Source: Bacillales bacterium UBA7581 (GTDB taxonomy: Bacteria > Bacillota_I > Bacilli_A > RFN20 > CAG-826). From it: a stretch of 64,000 nt of DNA. The stretch lies in NCBI GenBank assembly GCA_002477825.1, contig DLKT01000060.1, positions 16,616 through 80,615 of the forward strand, read 5' to 3'. The notes beneath the pieces were generated by a model. The model saw only the letters and a program-made list of their open reading frames with translations, was not told where the DNA came from and did not search any database. The translations under genes and the position numbers were made by a program. Below are positions 2,172 to 30,956 of this stretch, one piece after another. Numbering within the stretch: the first letter of the stretch is position 1; each line of letters starts with the position of its first letter.

Positions 2172-4291
2172 CTTGCGCCCTCCTTAATATCTAAGTTGAT
2201 GAAATGATAATTTCTAAATATTCCACTTGCGTGGTTATTCATCATGCCCAGTTGTCCAGGCAAATGACGGAAAATATCTTCTGTCTCATAAACCATTTGT
2301 TCATTGAGATAGAATCGTAATTTCTTTTCTTCTTTACGAATTTTTAAAACAAAGGTATTTTCTTTGTTTTTTTTCTTTTTCCAAACGACTTTACTATGAT
2401 CATAGTTTGCGTTAATGATTTGAAACTCATTTTGATTTAACACAAACATCCAGCCCATTAAAGAATAGGCATTTTCGAATTCGTTTGTTTTTCCATAATG
2501 AGAAACGTCGCTCACTAAGCCAATAAATCTATCATTTTTTGTAGGATTTCCAACTAAAGTTACTTTGGCTTCCAATTCATAGTACAAATATTTTTCCTTT
2601 GTCAAAATTGCATTGCGATCATTTTCAAAATAAAAGCCATTTTCCATCGGTAGATATCGATATAAAATATCCGCGTGCTTTAGGAAACGGTCATGATGCA
2701 ACATTGCCACTGGATAATCATGTTGTCGAATGAATAAAACTTCTTTTGTTGGTTTTATGTTTGAAAAAGAAATTTTATGCTTTCCTTTTTTCAAAAATAA
2801 AGTAGTGATGTAATTCTTTCCTTTATGTAAAGAAATAGAATATTTTTGTTGATTGATTTGCAATTCAATTTCTTGTTCTTTTTCACTTGAAAGAAATACA
2901 TCGTAATCTTGAGAAACATCCACTAATAAACTTGTTTCATAATGTTTTTTCTTTCTTATGGTATTTGCTAAGAAGAAATTTTCTTTCTTTATCGCTTCTT
3001 GATCACTGCTACCATAAGCATGGAAAGAATAAGCTAAATAGGATTCACTGAGTTGATTGTTGAAGAAACCAATTTGACCTTCTACAATCTTTATTTTCTT
3101 TTTTAAAGTGACTTCCATATCGTCTAGATAAATAGTAATTCTTTCTTTTGCATATTGAATGCGAACTGAATGAAATACATCTAATCTGTATATTTTTTTT
3201 AGTTTTTGAGAAAAAAGAATTGTTTCTTTTTCATGATCTTTCGCTATGATATCGATATGATCTTCAAACATTTGAAGATATTGATATTGATTTTCATTCT
3301 CATAGGAAAGAATTAAGCGCACATCTTTTCCTAAGAAGTTATATTCACTAGAGAATCTTTGATTCGGCATTTTTTCTAATGAAAGATAATTTGAAGTTTG
3401 AATTCTTTTTTCAAAATAGGGACGTTCCCATTGAATATTTCTCTCAATAGAAACACCATTACATAACATTTGCCCATATGAATCAAACATCAAACGCGTA
3501 ATATTCAAATATCGATTATGATTGGGCATCATATTATGATAAGCCAAATAATAACTATCTAAATTTGGACCTAGGAATGTCATTGAATGTCCTAGTCCAT
3601 AGAATTGATCCAAAGTAGAAATTAGTAAAGTGTCCTGAAACTTTAAGCCATCTTTACATAATTTTTTTCCACTTGAGTAATCAACGCGATAAGCATTACT
3701 TAAAAAATGTGTACCTGTATAAGTCAAATAATAAATTCCATAACGTTTTAATAAATAAGGACCTTCTGTCCAGTTTCCAATAGATGATTCATCGAAATTA
3801 TAATAATCATCAAATAAATCGAAATCCGTTTTTTCTTTGCTTTCTTTAAAACGTTTGATTGTAATTCCTGATTCACTTGCTCTTAAAAAATACTTTTCAC
3901 CATCTGAATCTTTAAAGAAACTTCCATCAATAAGCTCTTGAATATTTCCGTGCCAAGGTTCATATGGTCCTTCTAAAGAAGTTGAACGATAAATGCGATG
4001 CCCATTTCCTGAAGGTGAACTTACGATATAGAAATAGCCATTATCATAAGTAAGCTCTGGAGCAAAAGCATGTTTTAAATATTCATCTTCTGCCACAACG
4101 CCATCTTCATGAACATATTCCCAATGAATTAAGTCAAAAGATTTTTGTAGCACAAGGCCTTTGTCTTTTGTACAAAGCAAATAATAAAAGCCGTTATGTT
4201 TATAAATGAAAGGATCAGCGGCGCCTTTACTAACGCCGCCGTTTCCTTTTCGGTTCATAATATTTTTATAGAATTGAATTCCCTTTTCCAT
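2168..4291 (-). CDS. Cytoplasmic GH43-like glycoside hydrolase with a long C-terminal extension
   Basis: N-terminal five-bladed-propeller motifs GAADPFIYKHNGFYYL and EGPYLLKRYGIYYLTYTG. No signal peptide. About 350 aa of C-terminal region with unknown fold. Overlaps the downstream gene by 4 bp, suggesting translational coupling. Confidence 0.65.
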   Translation of the reverse strand: MEKGIQFYKNIMNRKGNGGVSKGAADPFIYKHNGFYYLLCTKDKGLVLQKSFDLIHWEYVHEDGVVAEDEYLKHAFAPELTYDNGYFYIVSSPSGNGHRIYRSTSLEGPYEPWHGNIQELIDGSFFKDSDGEKYFLRASESGITIKRFKESKEKTDFDLFDDYYNFDESSIGNWTEGPYLLKRYGIYYLTYTGTHFLSNAYRVDYSSGKKLCKDGLKFQDTLLISTLDQFYGLGHSMTFLGPNLDSYYLAYHNMMPNHNRYLNITRLMFDSYGQMLCNGVSIERNIQWERPYFEKRIQTSNYLSLEKMPNQRFSSEYNFLGKDVRLILSYENENQYQYLQMFEDHIDIIAKDHEKETILFSQKLKKIYRLDVFHSVRIQYAKERITIYLDDMEVTLKKKIKIVEGQIGFFNNQLSESYLAYSFHAYGSSDQEAIKKENFFLANTIRKKKHYETSLLVDVSQDYDVFLSSEKEQEIELQINQQKYSISLHKGKNYITTLFLKKGKHKISFSNIKPTKEVLFIRQHDYPVAMLHHDRFLKHADILYRYLPMENGFYFENDRNAILTKEKYLYYELEAKVTLVGNPTKNDRFIGLVSDVSHYGKTNEFENAYSLMGWMFVLNQNEFQIINANYDHSKVVWKKKKNKENTFVLKIRKEEKKLRFYLNEQMVYETEDIFRHLPGQLGMMNNHASGIFRNYHFINLDIKEGAR

Positions 4292-20635: not shown

Positions 20636-21658
20636 TTATTTCTGAGACTCCATTGGGACATTTTCAAGAATTAATTGTTTAAATAAATTGTAACCTGCTT
20701 GATTAGGATGCAAGCCATCTTGCTCATAATTCGCATAATTATCACCATATAAAGCCATGACATCCAAATAATGGACTCTTTCTTGGGTTTCGCAATACTC
20801 TTTCATATAAGTATTACTTCCTTCGTGGCTATCCCATTTAGAAGCAAATCCTCCTGAACAACGTGTGATAGAAAAATAATAAATATTGGTTTCTGGGTAA
20901 GCCTCTAAATAGTCTTCTATTAAAAGTTGAACGTTCCGGCCACAAGTTTTCCCCCCTTCTAAATCATCGTCCACATTGTTAATTCCAATATTGAGAACAA
21001 TATTTTTAGGTTGAACATTTGTTCCTTCTATAATATTGCGACTAATCACACGCCAGTCATGCGTTGTGGTAGCACTGATGCCCAAATTTAATGTTGCATA
21101 GCCTGCAAAAGCGTCGCTAAACTTTTCATCTATTCCTGTTTTATTGGCCCAAAATTCAAAGAAAGAATCACCAATAAACACGGTATCTTCTGCCTTCATA
21201 TTCTTTTTAGCACGATCAATTCTTGAAGTGCCTTGTGATTTAAAGTCAAAATAAGATTTAGCAAATACAGTGAATGTTCCTTTTAAATGTTCGCTTTGTG
21301 CTTGCACAGTTGTCGAGCCTTCCCTTAAGAAGAACACCTTGTCATCTTCAATGTAACAAATATCTTCATTCTTTATGGTGTATTCAAACACCTCATCTTT
21401 GGCTTCTTCTGGCTTTGTTAAAAATGGGCGGACTTTAATGCCGTCAAAGTCATTATCGTAAACAAAAACATTTTGAAAGGACACCTTCCCAAAATAATCA
21501 GTAGGATATGATGAGGTTGTTGGTGTTTCCGTCGTTGGAGTGACGGTTGTCGGTTCTAAAGAAGTAGAATTTGATGTGGGTTTTGTTTCTCCACAACTAA
21601 GAAGCATAGCGCTACAAAGGGCTACAAATAAGATAGAATTTTTCTTTGATAATTTCAT
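20636..21658 (-). CDS. SGNH/GDSL-family hydrolase lipoprotein (likely carbohydrate esterase, e.g. acetyl-xylan esterase)
   Basis: Lipobox LLSCGETKP. Block I FIGDSFFEFW (GDS) and block V DGLHPNQAGY (DxxH). Confidence 0.7.
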   Translation of the reverse strand: MKLSKKNSILFVALCSAMLLSCGETKPTSNSTSLEPTTVTPTTETPTTSSYPTDYFGKVSFQNVFVYDNDFDGIKVRPFLTKPEEAKDEVFEYTIKNEDICYIEDDKVFFLREGSTTVQAQSEHLKGTFTVFAKSYFDFKSQGTSRIDRAKKNMKAEDTVFIGDSFFEFWANKTGIDEKFSDAFAGYATLNLGISATTTHDWRVISRNIIEGTNVQPKNIVLNIGINNVDDDLEGGKTCGRNVQLLIEDYLEAYPETNIYYFSITRCSGGFASKWDSHEGSNTYMKEYCETQERVHYLDVMALYGDNYANYEQDGLHPNQAGYNLFKQLILENVPMESQK

Positions 21659-21677
21659 AGATAAAAAAATCTCCTTT

Positions 21678-23888
21678 TTATCTATAGTATTTTTTTAAAT
21701 GTTGAAAATCAATATCTAACTCTCCATTAAAAGTAATGTTCTTTATCGGTTCACACATCATCCAAGAGTAGCTTTTAAAGAATTCATCTATATCTAAATC
21801 AGGATGTTTTTCATGTATCATTTTTTGAAATTTTTCGGTGTGAATTACCTCTAGAATCGGTGTTGTAATATCCGGTTCTTGTGGCATTTCTTTTCTTTTT
21901 AAAAGGGGAATATTTTTATTTTGTTGAACTTTTTCTCCATGAATTTCAATTTCTAATGTGGTTAAAACTTCTTTCACATTTTTAGCAATATAAATTTGAT
22001 ATTTTCCATCTTCAATTTTCATTTCGTCAGAAACAACATCATAAACGGCTAAATCTTGATAGAAAACTTCAATTGTAATTTCTTTTTTGAAATTTCCTAA
22101 AATTTCTTCTTTAGTAATAGCTTTTAATTCTTTTAGCGGACGATAAACAACGCTATCACGTTTACCTACATAAATTTGAATTACATCTTTAGCCGTAAAG
22201 GAAGAAGTATTTTCAATCGTGAGTTCAACTTTGAATGACTTTTCTTCTTTTCTGAGTTTGTAGTTTGAATAAATAAAATGAGCATAGGATAAACCTTCAC
22301 CAAAGTGATAGTTAATTTCATTGTCTTTTTGTTGATCGTAGTAGCGGTAACCAACAAAAATATCATCATCATAATAAGAATAATAAATAGGTCTTTGGAT
22401 AAAATCTTTATAAATCGGATTCGCCTCTAAAGAACGAATCCAGGTTTCGGGTAAGCGTCCACTTGGACTCACTTTTCCGTAAATTACATCTCCTATTGCT
22501 TCATACATGCCTTCACCTGCTAAATAGCCGATTAAAATACTTGAAGCATCGTTTTTTAATTCATCAATATTAATCACAGAACCTGTAACGACAATAGAAG
22601 CATAAGCAATATGATGTTCTTTTAAGAATGATAAAAGTTGTTGTTGTTCTTTGTGCATCTTTAAAGAACCACGATCCCAACCTTCACTTTCATCTTCTTC
22701 ATATTGTCCTAAGAACACTAAAACTTTCTGATATTGATGAATGTATTTTAGTAATTCATCTTCATTTAATGTATATTCATTCTTTCGATAAGCTTCTACA
22801 TAATCAAAAGGAATATTTTCTTTTAAAAGCGCTTGTAAACAGCTAATATTTTGGTGTGTATTTACCCAAGCGCTTCCTCCACCCACAAAGCGAGGATGGC
22901 TTGCAAAATAACCTAACACTAATACTTTTTCTTCTTTGTTAAATGGTAAATAATTATTTTCATTTTTTAATAAAACAAAAGATTCTGCCGCTAATTCCCT
23001 TGCTTTTTGATGGATTTCATCAAAATCATAGATAATTGTAGGTTTTTCTTTTTTGGCTAATCTTGACACTGTTCTTGTAATTTCTTCCGCTCTATTTTCA
23101 ATATCTTCTAAAAAGAAATCATGATGAAACCCTTCATCAATTTCTTCCATCGTTCGTTTAGAAATCGGCATTTCCACATCTAAACCTGTATGAATGGTTT
23201 TCCCTTTATTTACGACCGCGGTCCAGTCACTAATAATTAAACCTTGATAACCGAATTCTTTTCGTAATTTCTTTTGAATTAAATAATCGGATTCATTAAC
23301 ATATATTCCATTCACCCGATTATAAGAAGTCATTAATAAACTTGGAGAGGCATGTTGAATCACATAATGAAAAGCCCATAAATAAATTTCATTTAAAGCA
23401 CGATAAGATACTTCACTTGAATTCGTCAAACGGAAGTATTCTTGGTTATTACAAGCATAATGTTTTACGCAGCTTGCTGCACCATTATCCTCTAATCCTT
23501 GAATATATCGACTCGCTAAAAAACCCGTCAAATAAGGATCTTCACTAAAATATTCAAAGTTTCTACCGCATAAAGCACTACGTTTAATGTTGATGCCTGG
23601 CGCTAAAAGGACATCGACTTTTTTACTTAAGCAATCTAATGCTAATAAACGTCCATTTTCATAACAAACCTCTTGACTAAAAGATGCTGCTAAAGCAGCA
23701 GGTGATAATAAACACACGGTTTCTAATATAGTTTCTTGGGCACTAAAATCATTTTTTACTGGTTTTCTGACTCCTAAAGGTCCATCATTTACCACAATAG
23801 GACGAATATCTTTTTGATAACAGCCAATTTCCCAAGCGTTTAATCCTTCAAAATAATGATAATGTGCATAACGTTCTTTTTTATCCAT
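21678..23888 (-). CDS. Glycoside hydrolase family 3 (beta-glucosidase / beta-xylosidase)
   Basis: GH3 motifs GRNFEYFSEDPYL and KHYACNNQE. Nucleophile context LIISDWTAV. C-terminal sandwich domain. No signal peptide. Confidence 0.75.
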   Translation of the reverse strand: MDKKERYAHYHYFEGLNAWEIGCYQKDIRPIVVNDGPLGVRKPVKNDFSAQETILETVCLLSPAALAASFSQEVCYENGRLLALDCLSKKVDVLLAPGINIKRSALCGRNFEYFSEDPYLTGFLASRYIQGLEDNGAASCVKHYACNNQEYFRLTNSSEVSYRALNEIYLWAFHYVIQHASPSLLMTSYNRVNGIYVNESDYLIQKKLRKEFGYQGLIISDWTAVVNKGKTIHTGLDVEMPISKRTMEEIDEGFHHDFFLEDIENRAEEITRTVSRLAKKEKPTIIYDFDEIHQKARELAAESFVLLKNENNYLPFNKEEKVLVLGYFASHPRFVGGGSAWVNTHQNISCLQALLKENIPFDYVEAYRKNEYTLNEDELLKYIHQYQKVLVFLGQYEEDESEGWDRGSLKMHKEQQQLLSFLKEHHIAYASIVVTGSVINIDELKNDASSILIGYLAGEGMYEAIGDVIYGKVSPSGRLPETWIRSLEANPIYKDFIQRPIYYSYYDDDIFVGYRYYDQQKDNEINYHFGEGLSYAHFIYSNYKLRKEEKSFKVELTIENTSSFTAKDVIQIYVGKRDSVVYRPLKELKAITKEEILGNFKKEITIEVFYQDLAVYDVVSDEMKIEDGKYQIYIAKNVKEVLTTLEIEIHGEKVQQNKNIPLLKRKEMPQEPDITTPILEVIHTEKFQKMIHEKHPDLDIDEFFKSYSWMMCEPIKNITFNGELDIDFQHLKKYYR

Positions 23889-23980
23889 GTTTTTTCCTCG
23901 TCACTTTTATTATACATAAAACCAAAAAAGAGAAAAGAAAAAGGATAGCATAAATACTACCCTCATCTTACAATTTAAAA

Positions 23981-25027
23981 TCATTTACGAACATATCTTG
24001 TATTTTTTCCTATGCCTATTTTTGAAATTTTATTCTCTCTTACCATTTTAGACAACACAAACTCTATAGTTGTAACCGAAACATCTGGTAAAATATCGCT
24101 AATTTCTTTTTTGGATATAGGAAGAATACTATTTAAAATAGTTGCTTCAACTCTAGTTGTTTTATTTATTTTTTTACTATTCAAAGTAGCAAATCTTTTA
24201 TCTAACTCTTTATAACAAGTAAATAAAGTCATAAGAAAATTATCAATAAAATAAGCATAATCATTTTGATTATCATGCCAACCTTCTGATGATTTTTTTA
24301 ATGCTTCATAATAATATCCTTTGGTTTTATTAATTTGTTCTTCAAATGAAATATATTTTCCTGCATCAAATCCAGCTTTATATAGCAAGAGTAAGGTCAA
24401 CAATCTAGACATTCTTCCATTTCCATCTGAAAATGGATGAATGCATAAAAAGTCAAGAACTACACAAGGAATCAATAATAATTGATTAACATTAGGATTA
24501 TCTCTAGCATCCATGTATGCCAAAATTAATTGTTCCATTGCTTTTGGCGTCTCACTTGCGGAAATTGGAGAAAAACGAACTTTTCGTGTTCCATCTTGCC
24601 TTATTTCCATAATTACATTGTCACTTGTTTTATATTTACCAGCGACGCCTGGCTTAGCTCTTTGCAATAAAATTTCTTGAAATGATAAGAGATTTGCTTC
24701 AGTTATACTCAAATCATCATAATGAGTATGAATCATATTAAGAACATCTCTATAACCCGCTATTTCTTCTTCGTTATGATTTAATGGCGCACTGCTTTGA
24801 TTGACAATGGCTCGAATTCTTTCGTCAGTAGTGATAATTCCTTCAATTGCATTGGATCCTTTTACTGATTGAATAATAGCTATTTTTTCTAATTCGGTAA
24901 AAACCTTTGGATATTCTTGTTTTCTATTATCATTGTTACTTTTCATTGCATAAATACTAGTTAAAATATTAATTAAATTAGCTGGTAAATTTCCAACTTC
25001 TAAAAAAGAGTAATCAAATTTTCTCAT
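23981..25027 (-). CDS. Fic/DOC family protein (auto-inhibited class II) with a C-terminal winged-helix domain
   Basis: Fic motif HPFSDGNGRMSR. N-terminal inhibitory motif SNAIEG (S/TxxxEG/N). C-terminal HTH-like tail. RBS AAGAGG upstream of the ATG. Confidence 0.8.
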   Translation of the reverse strand: MRKFDYSFLEVGNLPANLINILTSIYAMKSNNDNRKQEYPKVFTELEKIAIIQSVKGSNAIEGIITTDERIRAIVNQSSAPLNHNEEEIAGYRDVLNMIHTHYDDLSITEANLLSFQEILLQRAKPGVAGKYKTSDNVIMEIRQDGTRKVRFSPISASETPKAMEQLILAYMDARDNPNVNQLLLIPCVVLDFLCIHPFSDGNGRMSRLLTLLLLYKAGFDAGKYISFEEQINKTKGYYYEALKKSSEGWHDNQNDYAYFIDNFLMTLFTCYKELDKRFATLNSKKINKTTRVEATILNSILPISKKEISDILPDVSVTTIEFVLSKMVRENKISKIGIGKNTRYVRK

Positions 25028-25040
25028 CTATTTCGCCTCT

Positions 25041-25073
25041 TTCTGCATATATTTTATATTTTTTTATGCAGAA
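25041..25073. repeat. 33-bp palindromic element TTCTGCATA-N15(AT only)-TATGCAGAA, copy 1, 14 bp upstream of the Fic start
   Basis: Perfect 9-bp inverted arms with a 15-nt A/T-only spacer. An identical architecture is found at 25269-25301. Confidence 0.6.
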
Positions 25074-25199
25074 AAGCAATTTCTTTGTGCATAAAAAATG
25101 AAAATTTTTATGTAGAATAATTTATTGCCACAAAAGATTTTTTTGAAAGGAAAAAAAGTATTTCATTCAACTGCACTTGCTAGACAGATTTTTGGATAT

Positions 25200-25226
25200 A
25201 GAAAAAGGTGACTTATAAGCCACCCT
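25200..25226 (-). terminator. Rho-independent terminator of eno
   Basis: Minus-sense GGGTGGC-TTATAA-GTCACC hairpin (one G-U pair) followed by a U-run. Confidence 0.5.
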
Positions 25227-25268
25227 CTTCTAATTCAATTTAAATCAAGAAAATCAATGTGTTTTATT

Positions 25269-25301
25269 TTCTGCATATTTTTTATTATTTTTTATGCAGA
25301 A
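25269..25301. repeat. 33-bp palindromic element TTCTGCATA-N15-TATGCAGAA, copy 2, 32 bp downstream of the eno stop
   Basis: Same arms and spacer length as copy 1. An extra half-site TATGCAGAA lies at 25314-25322. Confidence 0.6.
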
Positions 25302-25333
25302 AGAAAGCTATATTATGCAGAATCTTTTCTCCG

Positions 25334-26641
<1,308 letters not shown>

Positions 26642-26934
26642 TCATCATTCTCCTTTTCTGAACAATTTTATTATTGTCCTTTTTAAGAGAAATACAACAA
26701 ATATGCTCAAAAATTTACTTTGTAAATTACTTGAAGAATTGCGTGGCTAATAGCTGATGTTTTTTAGGGAACATTTTCACTTCATTCATCATCATTTGTT
26801 CCCTAAATTTTGCTTAAAGAAAATTTCTAAAACATAAAATACTCTAAAGTTAAGTGGGGATAACAAAAATAAAAGACCTCTTTAGAGTTAAAAATTATTT
26901 TCACTCTATCGAAGTCTTTTTATACAATTTCTAA

Positions 26935-27888
26935 TTAATGAATGACATCAAAAGAAAGCAAAGCATTAGCGAATAATTTTCCTAATTCCACCATCGCTAG
27001 TGAGTCGTAGTGGCAGTAATCAATGCCATTATCCGGTTCTTTATCATAGGAAAGTTGATTTTGAATTGTATCAATGTAGTAATTATTTTCTTCATCTAAC
27101 AAAGCGTTATTTTTCTTTCCTTGATTGATGATAGAATAATTTTCCCAATATGGGGAAATGCCACCAGAAACGAATTTAATTTTGTTATCGCCTTCTTCAA
27201 CATAATAGCTAAACTCTTCTCTTAAATCTTTGATAAGATTCAGTTCATTACTTTCATATTGATTCGCGTAATAACCACCATCGGATTCACCTTGCATCCA
27301 GCAAATACCTTTTATATAGGGGTAATAATTTTGATCTTCTAATTCACTTAAACAGGAATGAATATAATCGACCATACCGGAATAAAGGACACCTACAGGT
27401 AAAGTTTCGGTTGAACTTGAAGTCGATAACCAATCTCTTTGAAGCGTGGTTCCTCCACTTGCGTATTTAATGATGAATAAATCGCGTTCAAATGTCTTCG
27501 TTTCAAAAACTTCATTCATACCAATCTCGGGGCCAAATCTTTCAAAATCATAACCCATACCTAAACGAATAGAAGAAAAGGTTTTTGATTCATTTAAATG
27601 GGTAGGTTGCATGGCATTACAACGGAATTTGATTTTGGTATTAGAACTATGTGCTTCAAAATATTTATTAAATAAAGTTTCATCTTTTTGCATTAACATC
27701 CGATTCCAAGTATTACCTTCCGCATTGGATTGTCCGCATAAAATAATGACATTGGCTTCTTTTACCATTGGTGTTTCACTCGTGGTAGGCACGCTTGAAG
27801 AAGTCGAAACGGGTGTATTCGAACAGGCACATAACATGAGTGTCATAAGAAGCACTGAAAATATATTATTTTTTCTTGTTTTTTCCAT
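26935..27888 (-). CDS. SASA/DUF303-type carbohydrate esterase lipoprotein (sialate-O-acetylesterase-like fold; probable acetyl esterase)
   Basis: Lipobox MLCACSNTP. Catalytic block IILCGQSNAEGN (GQSNMxG-type). Confidence 0.55.
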   Translation of the reverse strand: MEKTRKNNIFSVLLMTLMLCACSNTPVSTSSSVPTTSETPMVKEANVIILCGQSNAEGNTWNRMLMQKDETLFNKYFEAHSSNTKIKFRCNAMQPTHLNESKTFSSIRLGMGYDFERFGPEIGMNEVFETKTFERDLFIIKYASGGTTLQRDWLSTSSSTETLPVGVLYSGMVDYIHSCLSELEDQNYYPYIKGICWMQGESDGGYYANQYESNELNLIKDLREEFSYYVEEGDNKIKFVSGGISPYWENYSIINQGKKNNALLDEENNYYIDTIQNQLSYDKEPDNGIDYCHYDSLAMVELGKLFANALLSFDVIH

Positions 27889-27903
27889 TTGTTTTTTTCT
27901 CCT

Positions 27904-28746
27904 TTAATGATGAACCGGTTCCATCTTAGAATGATAGGGATAAAGCACTAAACGCTCATTACCATCGAAGGTATTTGGAGCATGGAAAGTCATCATTTTT
28001 TGACCGTCCTTTTCAAATACCATCGCGTGACCTCCATCTTCACTATAAATCGGTTGATCTTCTTGAATCCAAGGCCCTTTGATAGATTTACTATGGCATA
28101 CACCAATGGCGTATCCCGTTTTTGAATAGCTCGACCATATCATTTCTAAACCATCTTTTTGTTGAATGATAAATGGGCCATCGGTGACATAGTTATTTTT
28201 TCCTTGAAAGGCAATCGGCCATTTAGCGTCTTTTGCTGAAAATAGAATTTTCGGTTCACTAACGGGATGCGTTAAATCATCCGATAATTGCATTAAACAA
28301 ATCGTTCCATTTCCTATTTGAAGCCATTCGTGACAAAAGATAAGATAAGGTATTCCATTTTCTACCCAAAGGGTTCCATCTAAACATTCCCAATTTTTAG
28401 GCGTAATTGCGTGTTCGGTTAAACATGTAAATTCTCCGTCTGGACGATCAGAAACAAAGATTTGGGTTCCTCTACAACAATTGTCCGCTTTACAAGAGGC
28501 AAACAGATAGTACTTATTTTTGTATTTATGCATTTCTGGCGCCCAAAAATCTTTATTACCCCAGAAATGAGAATTTCCTTGAAAAATGATAGTGGGTTCG
28601 GTAAATTCTCCTAGATCTTTCGATTTATAAACAACAAATGAAGGATAAATCTCATCCTTTTTTTGATAGGCCGAATATAGATAATAGACTCCGTTTTCAA
28701 AATAAATAAATGGATCTCGAATATAAAGATCTTCTTTCTTAATCAT
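27904..28746 (-). CDS. Small cytoplasmic GH43-like five-bladed propeller glycosidase
   Basis: IRDPFIYFENGVYYLYS, WAPEMHKYKNKYYLFAS and DGPFIIQQKDG. 280 aa, no signal peptide. Confidence 0.55.
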   Translation of the reverse strand: MIKKEDLYIRDPFIYFENGVYYLYSAYQKKDEIYPSFVVYKSKDLGEFTEPTIIFQGNSHFWGNKDFWAPEMHKYKNKYYLFASCKADNCCRGTQIFVSDRPDGEFTCLTEHAITPKNWECLDGTLWVENGIPYLIFCHEWLQIGNGTICLMQLSDDLTHPVSEPKILFSAKDAKWPIAFQGKNNYVTDGPFIIQQKDGLEMIWSSYSKTGYAIGVCHSKSIKGPWIQEDQPIYSEDGGHAMVFEKDGQKMMTFHAPNTFDGNERLVLYPYHSKMEPVHH

Positions 28747-28760
28747 ATAATTTCACCTTC

Positions 28761-30956
28761 TCAGTTTTCTACCTTATCGAAGGTGATAACAATAGTTTCA
28801 AATTCTTCTAGCCATTTGATAAGATTAATGCCTACTAAACGTAGTTGTTTACCTGAATAAATCTTTCCATCTAATGAGTTTTGATAAAGTGTTTCATCGT
28901 CTAATCCATCGAATTTTAAGAAACGAGATAAGTTGCTTTCTCTTCTTTTATTAAAGAAAAGTGCAATGGCTTTTTCTTTATTTTTCGCTACACAAATCAT
29001 GGACATATGATTGGTTTCATAAGGAGATTCCATCCGATATAAATCACCATTTTGAATACAATCTAAATGATATTTTTTATAAAGATCTGCAATTTCGTTA
29101 ATTTGTTCAATATCTTCTTTATTTAAGTTCACTGGATTCATTTCATAACCATATGTTCCAAAAAGTGCGATTGCGCATTTTGCATAATAAGGAAGTAACG
29201 CACCACTAAAGGCATGAGAACCGATGGAGGATAATGGATATCCGTAGGTCGAAGCGTAATTAATGAACACTCTTTCGACTGCGTCGTTAGAGTCACTCGC
29301 TTGAATTTGGGGACAATACGATAACATTCCCATATCGAAACGGCCACCACCGGAAGCGCAGTGTTCAAATAAAATATTCGGATAACGTTCCACTAGCATA
29401 CCATAAAGACGATAAGCACCTTCCATAAAACGATGATACACTTCGCCTTGATGCTTTTTATTTAAAGTGGTGGAATACACTTCACTTAAACAACGATTGA
29501 AGTCAATTTTCACATAATCGATAGCGTATTGATCTAATAAATTACAAATTTGGGTATAAACATTTTGCACCGCTTCTTGATTCGTCATATCTAAGACGAG
29601 TTGATGTCTTCCTAAAGATAGCTTAATTCCTGGTAAACCTAAAGCATATTCAGGATGTTCTTGATAGAGTTTCGAGTGAAAAGAAATCATTTCCGGCTCT
29701 AACCAAATACCAAACTTCATGTGATTTTGGTGACAGGTCGCAATGATTTTTTCTAAATCAATCTTTTTAGGATTAACGGTCCAATCTCCTAAAGAAGAAG
29801 TATCATCATATCTTTCACCAAACCATCCATCATCTAAAACGAACACTTCGGTATTTAAAATTTTAGAATGTTCGATAAAATCACAGATTTTTTGAGTATC
29901 AAAATCAATGGTCGCGCCTTCCCAAGAATTAAATAAAATACCACGGTCGATGAAGGCATAAGGAGAACGAATAATATGTTGACGAACAAAATCATGTAAA
30001 GTTCTTGATAACGCGCCTCTTCCTTCATCAGAATAAGCCATAATGACTTCTGGTAAATATAATTTTTCATTTTCATCTAAACAATAGGAGAAGTCTTCTT
30101 CATTGATACCGAATAAAATACGCGTTGAATTCCATTTACTCACATCAACTTCAAAAGCAAAGTTACTAGAATACATTAAAGAAAATGCATACGCTTCTCC
30201 ATCTTTTTCATTGGTGTCCGGCCTTTCTAAGAAAAACACTGGATTTTCATTATGGGAAGTAAATCCATAATTTGATTGAATTCTTTCTTTTCCGTCATGG
30301 AGTTTTCTTCGACATATATTTTTTTCTTTACACCAATCCCCATAAAAATGCGTGAGATAATAATTGTCATCGGGTAAATCTAAAGTCATGGAATAGGCTT
30401 TTACGACATGGAAGGAATTTTTTCCTTTATTTTCGATATAAGCACTGCGTGTGATGACATCTAAATCTTCAAATATAGAATAGAATAAATGAACATAAGC
30501 TTCACTTAATTCATCTTTTAAAACGATTTCTAACGTCATACATTCTTCATCTTTTCCAAAAGAAGAAGGAAGGGTTTCTATTCCGGGTTTTCCTTTTAAA
30601 ATTTGATGAGATACATAGGTAAACTTTGTATAATTCGTATTTAAATCAGGTTTATGAATGATGATGGGCGCTCCACGTTTATCAAAACCACCATGGGTAG
30701 GAAGTTCCATCATCGAGAAATCTTCGTAGTAATGAAAATGAGCCCATGGCACCATTTTTTCAGAATTGGTTTCCTTATCTAAATATTGCCATCCCCACTC
30801 TCCTCTAGAAGTGAGATTTTGTAAATCTAAGTTTTCTAAATAGGGGCCAAAATAAAAGTGTTGAAGATAATTAAAATCATTAATTCCTAAATAATAAGAA
30901 ATTCTTTGGTTAAATAAATGAAAGTATCTTTCTTTCTCGTTATAGTAAATCAACAT
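28761..30956 (-). CDS. Alpha-galactosidase, glycoside hydrolase family 36
   Basis: GH36 blocks IDYVKIDFNRC (KWD-type nucleophile region) and HCASGGGRFD (SGGGR signature). 731 aa. Confidence 0.8.
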   Translation of the reverse strand: MLIYYNEKERYFHLFNQRISYYLGINDFNYLQHFYFGPYLENLDLQNLTSRGEWGWQYLDKETNSEKMVPWAHFHYYEDFSMMELPTHGGFDKRGAPIIIHKPDLNTNYTKFTYVSHQILKGKPGIETLPSSFGKDEECMTLEIVLKDELSEAYVHLFYSIFEDLDVITRSAYIENKGKNSFHVVKAYSMTLDLPDDNYYLTHFYGDWCKEKNICRRKLHDGKERIQSNYGFTSHNENPVFFLERPDTNEKDGEAYAFSLMYSSNFAFEVDVSKWNSTRILFGINEEDFSYCLDENEKLYLPEVIMAYSDEGRGALSRTLHDFVRQHIIRSPYAFIDRGILFNSWEGATIDFDTQKICDFIEHSKILNTEVFVLDDGWFGERYDDTSSLGDWTVNPKKIDLEKIIATCHQNHMKFGIWLEPEMISFHSKLYQEHPEYALGLPGIKLSLGRHQLVLDMTNQEAVQNVYTQICNLLDQYAIDYVKIDFNRCLSEVYSTTLNKKHQGEVYHRFMEGAYRLYGMLVERYPNILFEHCASGGGRFDMGMLSYCPQIQASDSNDAVERVFINYASTYGYPLSSIGSHAFSGALLPYYAKCAIALFGTYGYEMNPVNLNKEDIEQINEIADLYKKYHLDCIQNGDLYRMESPYETNHMSMICVAKNKEKAIALFFNKRRESNLSRFLKFDGLDDETLYQNSLDGKIYSGKQLRLVGINLIKWLEEFETIVITFDKVEN

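Follow-up and report, generated by a model that had tools for sequence, protein, structure and literature searches.

The DNA between eno and fic carries palindromic elements of a common architecture, which raises the question of what reads them and with what effect on the neighboring genes. The first-pass annotation described two such elements as flanking a gene for an auto-inhibited Fic protein. It offered three readings of them, namely operators of an unknown regulator, RNA hairpins controlling Fic translation, or the ends of a small inserted element. These readings were weighed here using the window, i.e., the whole 64-kb stretch of DNA analyzed, together with homologous loci from other genomes.

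Inverted repeats and a predicted promoter upstream of fic

Two perfect 9-bp inverted repeats with 15-nt A/T-only spacers are located where they had been reported (O1 and O3; Table 1), as is the additional half-site, TATGCAGAA. However, the count of two elements overlooked a third full copy, O2. Likewise, the elements do not flank fic: as eno and fic are both encoded on the minus strand, every site lies upstream of fic, and the region 3' of fic contains no palindrome, only the gene's own terminator. O1 and the ATG are separated by 13 nt rather than 14 nt. O3 is located 228 bp upstream of O1 and is 91% identical to it across 35 nt. An extra left half-site 20 to 21 bp upstream of a palindrome, like the one next to O3, was also found in three homologous loci (L090, L070, and L111).

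Table 1. Positions of genes, predicted control elements, and segment boundaries in the eno-fic region of the window
Feature	Position	Strand	Description
T2, fic intrinsic terminator	23941..23964	-	fic is a single-gene transcription unit
Accessory segment, ~1.3 kb	23970..25266	-	T1, O2, O1, and fic ORF; from BLAST breakpoints and alignment
fic	23981..25027	-	348 aa; class II Fic; predicted C-terminal winged helix
Ribosome-binding site AGAGG	25036..25040	-	8 nt before fic ATG at 25027
O1, proximal operator (predicted)	25041..25073	.	TTCTGCATA-N15-TATGCAGAA, perfect; overlaps predicted fic core promoter
-10 box TAAAAT (predicted)	25051..25056	-	within O1 spacer; 17 nt from -35 box
-35 box TTGCTT (predicted)	25074..25079	-	directly abuts O1 left half-site
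O2, second operator (predicted)	25085..25117	.	TTGTGCATA-N15-TATGTAGAA; 16/18 half-site positions, 2 mismatches; 44 bp upstream of O1
T1, intrinsic-terminator hairpin then U-run	25199..25232	-	-19.9 kcal/mol, z = -7
O3, distal palindrome	25269..25301	.	perfect; eno 3' untranslated region; outside fic insertion
Extra half-site	25314..25322	.	minus-strand reading TTCTGCATA; direct orientation, 21 bp upstream of O3 left half-site
eno	25334..26638	-	

When the window was searched for the full pattern with up to 3 mismatches, 3 matches were obtained, all in the eno-fic intergenic region. Shuffled sequences gave a mean of 0.05 matches, and none of 100 shuffles reached 3. A shorter core pattern gave the same outcome in both the window scan and the shuffles. 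The concern, raised in the first-pass annotation, that the pattern might be common in AT-rich intergenic DNA was thus not borne out within the 64 kb. Likewise, the confinement of the sites to this one region differs from the scatter of a dispersed repeat of the REP or MITE type.

O1 is interleaved with a predicted sigma-A-type promoter (TTGCTT-17-TAAAAT), for which the transcription start is predicted near position 25044, within the O1 right half-site. The same layout was observed in 51 unique Fic-proximal sites from homologous loci. In these, the -35 columns read TTGatT (T 88%, T 90%, G 88%) and the -10 columns TAtAaT (T 86%, A 92%, T 96%), with a TG upstream of the latter. The spacer columns were unconstrained in the search pattern. 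Overall, the homologous sites follow the consensus TTGatT / half-site / ..TGnTAtAaT. / half-site / aggagg, and the ATG starts 12 to 14 nt after the proximal site. O3 was considered as a strong second promoter and rejected, having CTTTCT before its left arm and TAAAAA at the -10 position. On the plus strand, a TATTAT is present at O3 without a usable -35 box.

Association of the sites with fic and a candidate regulator

In species-representative genomes, the exact 33-bp pattern occurs in at least 119 places across many phyla, compared to a chance expectation of about 9 exact matches (596 Gb x 4^-18). At 76 of these 119 matches, a Fic homologue of 41 to 80% identity begins directly after the site. 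The homologues behind the promoter-operator pair show 41 to 82% identity and are found in unrelated neighborhoods in several phyla. The equivalent of the proximal site is positioned at -44 to -55 from the ATG in approximately 70 Fic loci, and most homologous loci have a second site 43 to 44 or 54 to 55 bp upstream of the O1 equivalent (around -90 or -100). An independent set of 78 metagenome loci was picked by protein similarity only. A site matching at least 13 of 18 positions was present within 300 nt upstream in 48 of them, mostly at the same positions, and most of the others had a site that varied in spacing (N14, N16) or in its half-sites. The neighbors differ between loci and include, among others, a recombinase, the atp operon, a GGDEF gene, and AbiE; AbiEii, Schlafen/AlbA_2, and RelB/YafQ genes also occur in the neighborhoods of homologues. 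The sole gene that always accompanies the sites is fic, and no second gene is conserved alongside.

The assignment of the encoded protein to class II Fic, made in the first-pass annotation, was confirmed, as the active-site motif and SNAIEG are present in one chain. The active site, HPFSDGNGRMSR (residues 197 to 208), is an AMP-transferase motif that matches HxFx(D/E)GNGRxxR and is invariant in homologues; the Pfam Fic match of the window protein is 1.4e-13. SNAIEG (residues 58 to 63) lies N-terminal to the Fic core and fits the inhibitory motif (S/T)xxxE(G/N), with S58, N59, E62, and G63 invariant in homologue alignments. In an AlphaFold model (pLDDT 88), this motif falls in a helix predicted at residues 40 to 62, and a long N-terminal helix is predicted at residues 16 to 38. 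No helix-turn-helix domain was detected in the window Fic by Pfam search. The model has a C-terminal helix-helix-helix-wing domain (residues ~289 to 348), with predicted helices at 289 to 298, 306 to 312, and 318 to 330 and predicted strands at 334 to 337 and 344 to 347. The helix at 318 to 330 is the putative recognition helix. Full-length Foldseek matches of the model include 3eqx, 8cil, 7xux, and 4rgl, and SoFic, CbFic2, and CccR are among the proteins matched. For the closest solved relative, PDB 8UQU, the entry spans the N-terminal domain only, and a literature search found no accompanying paper.

No small ORF that could encode a separate antitoxin, as in class I Fic/Doc modules of the VbhT/VbhA type, is adjacent to fic in the operon. 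The transcription unit comprises a promoter, fic, and a terminator, and the inhibitory motif is inside Fic itself.

Variation among the half-sites follows the Fic subclades. The core TGCATA is nearly invariant across sites, and where the site is conserved, so is the putative recognition helix; loci with CTGCATA have the helix PD[VI]SxTT[VI]E in common. Divergent Fic subclades show the same geometry and architecture with other half-sites: TCTCCATCA-N13-TGATGGAGA pairs with the recognition helix PDISKITVERTL, ACAGTGCA with PDISVDTIK, and CTACACA with PDVGLRTIE. These pairings cover few clades. De novo grouping of half-sites against recognition helices was noisy from register shifts and is used here qualitatively only.

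As fic is the one constant companion of the sites and its product has a predicted C-terminal winged helix, the regulator is probably Fic itself. The suggestion of operator sites in the first-pass annotation is supported, with the regulator probably not an unknown one. In our assessment, the palindromes are likely operators of a self-repressing, single-gene fic cassette, with both the binding and the repression by Fic inferred. A Fic dimer would set its two recognition helices on two TTCTGCATA half-sites whose centers are 24 bp apart. With the -35 box abutting the left arm of O1, the -10 box in the spacer, and the right arm over the predicted start, a bound dimer would exclude RNA polymerase. 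O2, 44 bp (about four helical turns) upstream, would probably support cooperative binding. The net outcome would be that a potentially toxic enzyme is kept at a low, self-limited level. O3 and the extra half-site have the same half-sites and no usable promoter, and their presumed function is that of either an orphan or an auxiliary operator.

The fetched loci of the remaining 43 of the 119 exact matches contained no Fic gene. About 12 of these appear chance-like, several are cut by contig ends, and the rest are genuine-looking sites beside unrelated housekeeping genes. Such orphan sites precede genes for a response regulator, a class-V aminotransferase, the DNA polymerase III delta' subunit, and a ROK kinase, among others. 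All-against-all BLAST of the neighboring ORFs identified no shared family, and Pfam likewise assigned the neighbors to unrelated housekeeping genes. The orphans were also considered as an operator plus terminator left after deletion of the ORF. This is not generally the case, as a crude scan found a terminator-like hairpin within 130 nt in only 6 of 27.

The orphan sites may indicate that a regulator is encoded at another locus, or that the regulon is wider. Together with the persistence of O3 in fic-less loci (see below), they are what would be expected if the palindromes were operators of a separately encoded regulator, such as a host transcription factor or a mobile-element protein, with fic as one of several targets. 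However, we consider this unlikely, because no second gene is conserved beside the sites and because the same sites accompany a single-gene cassette with its own terminator in several phyla. Furthermore, the half-site sequence shifts with the Fic subclade, and Fic has a predicted winged helix of which the putative recognition helix is conserved with the site.

An accessory fic segment and the remaining explanations

Comparison with related loci, proposed as a check in the first-pass annotation, was informative. None of the 14 loci sampled, which carry two other near-identical eno alleles, contains the ~1.3-kb accessory segment; approximately 35 nt take its place. The hairpin described as the eno terminator between the sites (T1) does exist and ends eno transcription in this strain. 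However, it belongs to the accessory segment and is absent in the fic-less loci; T2 is homologous to the sole terminator found there. O3 is positioned just outside the left junction of the segment and was present in all 14 fic-less loci read, in perfect form in 11, while the extra half-site reads TTCTACATA in fic-less loci. The right junction falls at the fic stop codon and has no palindrome. Sequence past the left junction resembles sequence past the fic stop, and the insert is thus flanked by direct repeats. All contigs with fic match the window at 100% identity and are thus uninformative on strain variation within the intergenic region.

Because O3 lies outside the insert and is kept in fic-less loci of the same species, it may be either an operator with an auxiliary or looping role or what is left of an earlier cassette. 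Its retention without fic could reflect another binder, a paralogue elsewhere, or recent loss of fic. O3 is 228 bp from O1 and 184 bp from O2, corresponding to 21.7 and 17.5 helical turns; this helical phasing is ambiguous, and we therefore make no claim of DNA looping. A bolder extension of Fic autorepression, to which we give a small chance of being right, is, by analogy with the DNA-driven dimerization and activity switch of CbFic2 (PMC10628234), that arrays of operator DNA (O1, O2, O3, and the orphans beside housekeeping genes) hold Fic inactive as a dimer, with the DNA serving as a sort of antitoxin or decoy. Fic could also gain a small regulon in this way. If so, Fic would be released and activated on phage infection or cassette loss, and O3 in fic-less strains would be a maintained part of a strain-variable defense circuit rather than a scar.

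The absence of the segment from conspecific loci supports the part of the inserted-element proposal that treats fic as an accessory insertion, but not the part that makes the palindromes its two ends, as O1 and O2 are internal and O3 is outside. In its stronger form, this proposal takes the palindromes as boundaries or recombination sites of a small mobile fic cassette, concerned with movement rather than regulation. The 1.3-kb segment containing fic, O1, O2, and T1, its left junction abutting O3, the direct repeats bounding the insert, and the many differing genomic contexts of fic would all be compatible with such a role. Nevertheless, we regard it as decidedly improbable. Besides the internal position of O1 and O2 and the palindrome-free right junction, a recombinase was found near fic only in loci L003 and L004, with none consistently linked. 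In addition, the promoter in O1 and the fixed distance to the ATG indicate transcription control. An interpretation of the palindromes as flanking inverted repeats was likewise rejected, as there is none 3' of fic and the insert junctions do not match the palindrome pair. Roles in movement and regulation are compatible with each other, and the movement of cassettes may benefit from homologous exchange between copies of the operator.

The palindromes could also act as hairpins in RNA or single-strand DNA, either controlling Fic translation from the 5' leader or stabilizing the 3' end of eno mRNA. Indeed, the perfect palindromes fold as a stem of 10 to 11 bp with a 15-nt loop (O1, -10.8 kcal/mol, z = -4.2; O3 region, -11.1 kcal/mol, z = -2.3), and O3 is transcribed within the eno 3' untranslated region. 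However, folding of O2 is weak (-4.4 kcal/mol). Changes in the arms are mostly one-sided rather than compensatory, and both-sided changes were no commoner than chance, with observed versus expected numbers for independent arms of 11 versus 8.9 at position 1, 4 versus 1.5 at position 2, 3 versus 2.3 at position 3, and 1 versus 1.0 at position 8. With transcription predicted to start within the right arm of O1, the left arm would be missing from fic mRNA. No Rfam family was matched (best score, 21.9 bits; threshold, 100). Given the lack of compensatory variation, the predicted start inside O1, and the lack of an Rfam family, we reject the RNA hairpins of the first-pass annotation and rate the hairpin reading as a whole as very unlikely. 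Finally, despite the A/T-only spacers and the G+C content of the window of ~33%, the notion that the palindromes arose by chance in AT-rich intergenic DNA can practically be dismissed in light of the shuffles, the cross-genome matches in excess of expectation, and the fixed spacing of most of these to Fic genes.

Self-repression by Fic, the preferred reading, would have several implications. It provides a candidate operator/promoter layout, (T/A)TCTGCATA-N15-TATGCAGA(A/T), for a large winged-helix Fic subfamily that spans a wide phylogenetic range and occurs in gut and rumen anaerobes. Our literature search found no operator for this subfamily, and in the accessible text on the relatives compared below, a defined sequence is given for CccR only. 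The half-site differences between subclades represent natural specificity variants for studying how dimers read widely spaced half-sites. With respect to annotation, the presumed eno terminator is, like fic, accessory DNA specific to the strain. Furthermore, a palindrome within the 3' untranslated region of a housekeeping gene can be part of a mobile gene that is, or once was, its neighbor.

Comparison with known Fic proteins and autoregulated operators

A published precedent is CccR of Yersinia pseudotuberculosis (YPK_0951, PDB 7XUX), a dimeric repressor of its own gene that acts on its promoter via AGATAATCAT-N26-ATGATAATCT near the -35 and -10 boxes (PMC9755527). Both proteins are class II Fic proteins with an N-terminal inhibitory motif (SARIEG in CccR, SNAIEG here) and a C-terminal helix-turn-helix, which is a predicted winged helix in the window Fic. 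Both operators consist of inverted 9- to 10-bp half-sites with an unusually long spacer over the -35/-10 region. The window Fic matches 7xux in sequence with E = 9e-8, and the predicted fold is alike over the full length. However, identity in the structural alignment is only ~20%, and the operators differ (AGATAATCAT-N26-ATGATAATCT versus TTCTGCATA-N15-TATGCAGAA). One inverted-repeat pair is described for CccR in the text available, compared to two tandem operators and a distal one predicted here. Furthermore, CccR is a type VI secretion effector of a proteobacterium, whereas the window fic is a stand-alone cassette in a gut Bacilli genome, and no link to secretion was seen in its surroundings. 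CccR has been demonstrated to bind and repress; for the window Fic, both are inferred.

[quoted passage not shown] The PADLOC SoFic model, which stands for an anti-phage defense system, matched the window Fic at 7.8e-33 (112 bits, residues 48 to 327), while the NCBIfam SoFic equivalog NF046030 scored 36 bits against a cut-off of 550. Judged from these profile scores, the window Fic is a relative and not an equivalog. The target of SoFic is EF-Tu. For a role of the window Fic in phage defense, there are hints from context, namely the AbiEii, Schlafen/AlbA_2, RelB/YafQ, and recombinase genes near homologues and the variable presence of fic among strains. CbFic2 of Coxiella burnetii (PDB 8CIL) is another class II Fic with a C-terminal winged helix and a full-length predicted-fold match. 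CbFic2 binds DNA, which promotes its dimerization and switches its enzyme activity (PMC10628234). In contrast to the sequence-specific sites predicted in the fic promoter here, the DNA binding of CbFic2 is without demonstrated sequence specificity.

As such self-repression is already known for related Fic proteins, the fic cassette would add one more example to a known kind of system, and the advance is incremental. The result suggests that single-chain Fic cassettes in general repress themselves. Autoregulated type II and type IV toxin-antitoxin systems, such as those with the winged-helix protein AbiEi and its inverted repeats, similarly limit a toxic activity through palindromic operators over the promoter. 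However, the window locus has no separate antitoxin gene; instead, the inhibitory helix, the toxin, and the predicted DNA-binding domain are combined in one chain.

Palindromic sites between eno and fic

Three palindromic putative operator sites (O1, O2 and O3) lie between eno and fic, the gene for a 348-aa class II Fic protein. The first-pass annotation had described two perfect 9-bp inverted repeats with A/T-only 15-nt spacers, O1 and O3, together with a further single half-site; all of these were found at the positions listed below, and a third full copy, O2, had been missed. With three mismatches allowed, O1, O2 and O3 were the sole matches in the 64 kb, compared with a mean of 0.05 in shuffled sequence, and three matches were reached in none of 100 shuffles. 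A shorter core of the pattern gave the same outcome in the shuffle test. The pattern is not frequent in the window, and the set of palindromes is real and non-random.

Features of the eno-fic region (window positions)
Feature	Position	Strand	Details
eno	25334-26638	minus	
Extra half-site	25314-25322		single TATGCAGAA
O3	25269-25301	both strands read	perfect inverted repeat TTCTGCATA-N15-TATGCAGAA; spacer A/T only
T1 (hairpin, then U-run)	25232-25199	minus	strong; -19.9 kcal/mol, z = -7
O2	25085-25117		TTGTGCATA-N15-TATGTAGAA; N15 as in O1 and O3; two mismatches
Predicted -35 box	25079-25074	minus	TTGCTT; adjoins left arm of O1
O1	25041-25073	both strands read	perfect inverted repeat TTCTGCATA-N15-TATGCAGAA; spacer A/T only
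Predicted -10 box	25056-25051	minus	TAAAAT; within O1 spacer, 17 nt downstream of -35 box
Predicted start site	near 25044	minus	under right arm of O1
Ribosome-binding site		minus	AGAGG; between O1 and fic ATG
fic	23981-25027	minus	
T2 (terminator)	23964-23941	minus	only feature after fic stop codon
Insert	23970-25266		~1.3 kb; T1, O2, O1 and fic ORF

On the minus strand, the order is eno stop, extra half-site, O3, T1, O2, O1, AGAGG and fic ATG. As eno and fic are both on this strand, every site is upstream of fic, and the earlier description of fic as flanked by palindromes does not hold; the unit contains a single gene, fic. A predicted sigma-A-type promoter is interleaved with O1; a simple promoter scan overlooked it because its -35 box matches TTGACA at only 3 of 6 positions. 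fic lies within a carbohydrate-utilization run (20981-30956) encoding a GH36 alpha-galactosidase, GH43, a SASA-family esterase, eno, GH3 and a GDSL lipase.

Conservation of the sites and their neighbors

Uncultured Bacilli are rich in Fic homologues at 67 to 82% identity. Among seven close homologues read in their contigs, the neighboring genes vary (serine recombinase, atp operon, second Fic with RelB/YafQ, Schlafen/AbiEii genes, GGDEF gene, DUF1292 gene), and the O2-O1 pair is directly 5' of the ATG in all seven. Three of these neighborhoods, with a large serine recombinase upstream (L003, 726-2717), another Fic gene and RelB/YafQ immediately upstream (L006, 775-4050), and Schlafen/AlbA_2 and AbiEii genes nearby (L007, 819-6078), resemble defense or mobile islands.

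A scan for the exact 33-bp pattern in one genome per species returned at least 119 places, with ~9 expected by chance (our own calculation). The matches listed come from Clostridia, Bacilli, Fibrobacter, Treponema, Verrucomicrobia, Synergistetes, Desulfovibrionaceae and Actinomycetes, and a Fic homologue (41 to 80% identity) begins directly after the site in 76 of the 119 listed. At the homologous loci among them, O1 is 44 to 55 bp and O2 87 to 110 bp from the ATG, and the O1-O2 spacing is 43 to 44 or 54 to 55 bp, approximately four or five helical turns. The free positions of 51 unique proximal sites yielded a consensus of TTGatT preceding the left arm and TGnTAtAaT within the spacer, with aggagg after the site and the ATG 12 to 14 nt past it. 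Embedding of the promoter in the operator is therefore characteristic of the family. In an independent set selected by protein similarity only, comprising 78 metagenome loci whose upstream DNA could be analyzed, 48 had a site scoring at least 13/18 within 300 nt upstream, at mostly unchanged positions; the others were mostly N14/N16 spacing variants or half-site variants. A three-half-site layout recurs in the window (25293-25322), L090, L070, L111 and L007, where a palindrome has an additional left-type half-site 20 to 22 bp (two helical turns) upstream of its left arm. Such a layout suggests that more than a simple dimer may bind.

Fic was absent from the fetched locus in 43 of the 119 exact matches listed. 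About 12 of these, in coding DNA and with G+C-rich spacers, look like chance occurrences, and several are cut by contig ends, one of which (L114) shows the first ten Fic codons. The remaining sites look genuine, often with extra half-sites nearby, and stand just upstream of unrelated housekeeping genes (L109, 5436; L123, 804; L122, 3249; L127, 2874; L072, 7145 and 7188; L103, 2590; L076, 6594). The genes that follow encode an OmpR-type response regulator, a class-V aminotransferase, the DNA polymerase III delta' subunit, a 2-hydroxyacid dehydrogenase, a ROK kinase, a short-chain dehydrogenase and a uridine-kinase-like protein. Such sites may be remnants of cassettes that have been lost, or may belong to a regulon, and they are the main support for the rival view of a broader regulon or a regulator other than Fic.

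The palindromes had also been proposed as RNA hairpins controlling Fic translation. Among 47 partner sites, for which exactness was not imposed by the search, the core TGCATA was near-invariant in both arms. Changes at positions 1, 2, 3 and 8 were predominantly one-sided (19, 9, 15 and 12), and both-sided changes (11, 4, 3 and 1) were close to those expected under independent variation (8.9, 1.5, 2.3 and 1.0). Judged from the sequences, this pattern indicates two half-sites each kept to one consensus rather than a conserved stem. As variation is mainly one-sided, the predicted start site falls within O1 and an Rfam search gave no match, the RNA reading is unlikely. A weak hit to RF03532 (SQ2397, "cis-regulator of HTH transcription factor"; 25186-25307, minus strand) was taken as chance (21.9 bits versus a gathering score of 100; E = 0.42).

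O3 and the strain-variable fic insertion

The eno protein is 99% identical to that of "Coprobacillus sp. CAG:826," which makes the organism a relative. All contigs carrying the window's own eno allele contain fic. With two other near-identical eno alleles, fic was absent in 14 of the 14 places listed (L213 to L226, compared at about 3806-3960 in locus coordinates), where the GH3 gene directly follows eno. The alignment places the insertion breakpoints at 25267 and 23969, and the insert stands in place of ~35 nt found in the empty site. The sequence past the left junction (TGATTTTCTTGATTTAAATTG...GAGGGTGG into T1) resembles that past the fic stop (TGATTTTAAATTG...GAGGGTAG into T2); direct repeats therefore bound the insert on either side. 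The sole terminator of the empty site is of the T2 type and serves the fic-less eno, while T1, previously taken for the eno terminator between the palindromes, belongs to the insert. The GH3 gene is called as 778 aa in fic-less contigs (L213, 3863-6199, with the start inside the O3 region) versus 736 aa here, probably a gene-calling artifact.

The strain comparison bears out the suggestion that fic was inserted next to eno but not that the palindromes form the ends of the insert, as O1 and O2 are inside it and O3 is outside. Each of the 14 fic-less places has both O3 (perfect in 11, one mismatch in 3) and the extra half-site (there TTCTACATA). O3 is thus a putative orphan operator at a locus that gains and loses fic cassettes. 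It matches O1 at 91% identity across 35 nt, but its -35 region is poor and its -10 position reads TAAAAA; no distal third site was found among the close fic homologues examined. O3 may aid repression in this strain by looping or cooperative binding, or may be a scar.

Fic as the candidate DNA-binding protein

The class II assignment was confirmed, with the active site HPFSDGNGRMSR and, N-terminal to it in the same chain, the inhibitory motif SNAIEG. The AlphaFold model (pLDDT 88) has a C-terminal predicted winged helix (helices 289-298, 306-312 and 318-330, then a two-strand wing).

Of the neighboring genes, fic is the only one constantly found with the sites. Divergent Fic subclades keep the inverted-repeat geometry, with a ~15-nt spacer around the -10 box, and differ in their half-sites. 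These include TCTCCATCA-N13-TGATGGAGA with helix PDISKITVERTL in a clade of 41 to 44% identity (L197, L200 and L206), ACAGTGCA-N15 with helix PDISVDTIK, CTACACA-type repeats with helix PDVGLRTIE, and TTGCATA in other subclades. The 41 to 44% clade retains the promoter-embedded geometry and carries a further half-site in direct orientation ~23 bp upstream; the -35 box lies between them. Loci with CTGCATA have the helix PD[VI]SxTT[VI]E in common, even at 41% overall identity. In L181, whose Fic homologue (55% identity) has the divergent putative recognition helix PDVGLRTIE, three identical tandem units 54 bp apart lie ~160 nt upstream of the Fic start (1418), each holding a variant palindrome, TACTACACA-N16-TGTGTAGTA.

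We infer that Fic would repress itself via O1 and O2. Overall, the best reading of the sites is that they form the promoter-operator region of a winged-helix Fic cassette that represses itself and varies between strains. What this analysis adds is a defined operator consensus that holds across phyla, its variants in particular subclades, and an orphan copy remaining at the insertion site.

The cassette is related to CccR and SoFic. Foldseek aligned the protein over its full length with Dde_2494 (4rgl), SoFic (3eqx, 3zec), CbFic2 (8cil) and CccR (7xux), all winged-helix Fic proteins. Among solved relatives, a Bordetella Fic (8uqu; E = 4e-71) is nearest in sequence, and CccR matches at E = 9e-8. 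The PADLOC SoFic defense model matched (7.8e-33); the NCBIfam SoFic equivalog scored 36 bits, far under its cut-off of 550. In published work, CccR acts as a dimer through its C-terminal domain and represses its own promoter via AGATAATCAT-N26-ATGATAATCT near the -35/-10 boxes (PMC9755527), and a SoFic dimer binds its own promoter region (bioRxiv 10.64898/2026.07.09.737422). CbFic2 likewise binds DNA through its C-terminal domain (PMC10628234). The published DNA-binding logic of these three proteins is that proposed here for the window Fic.
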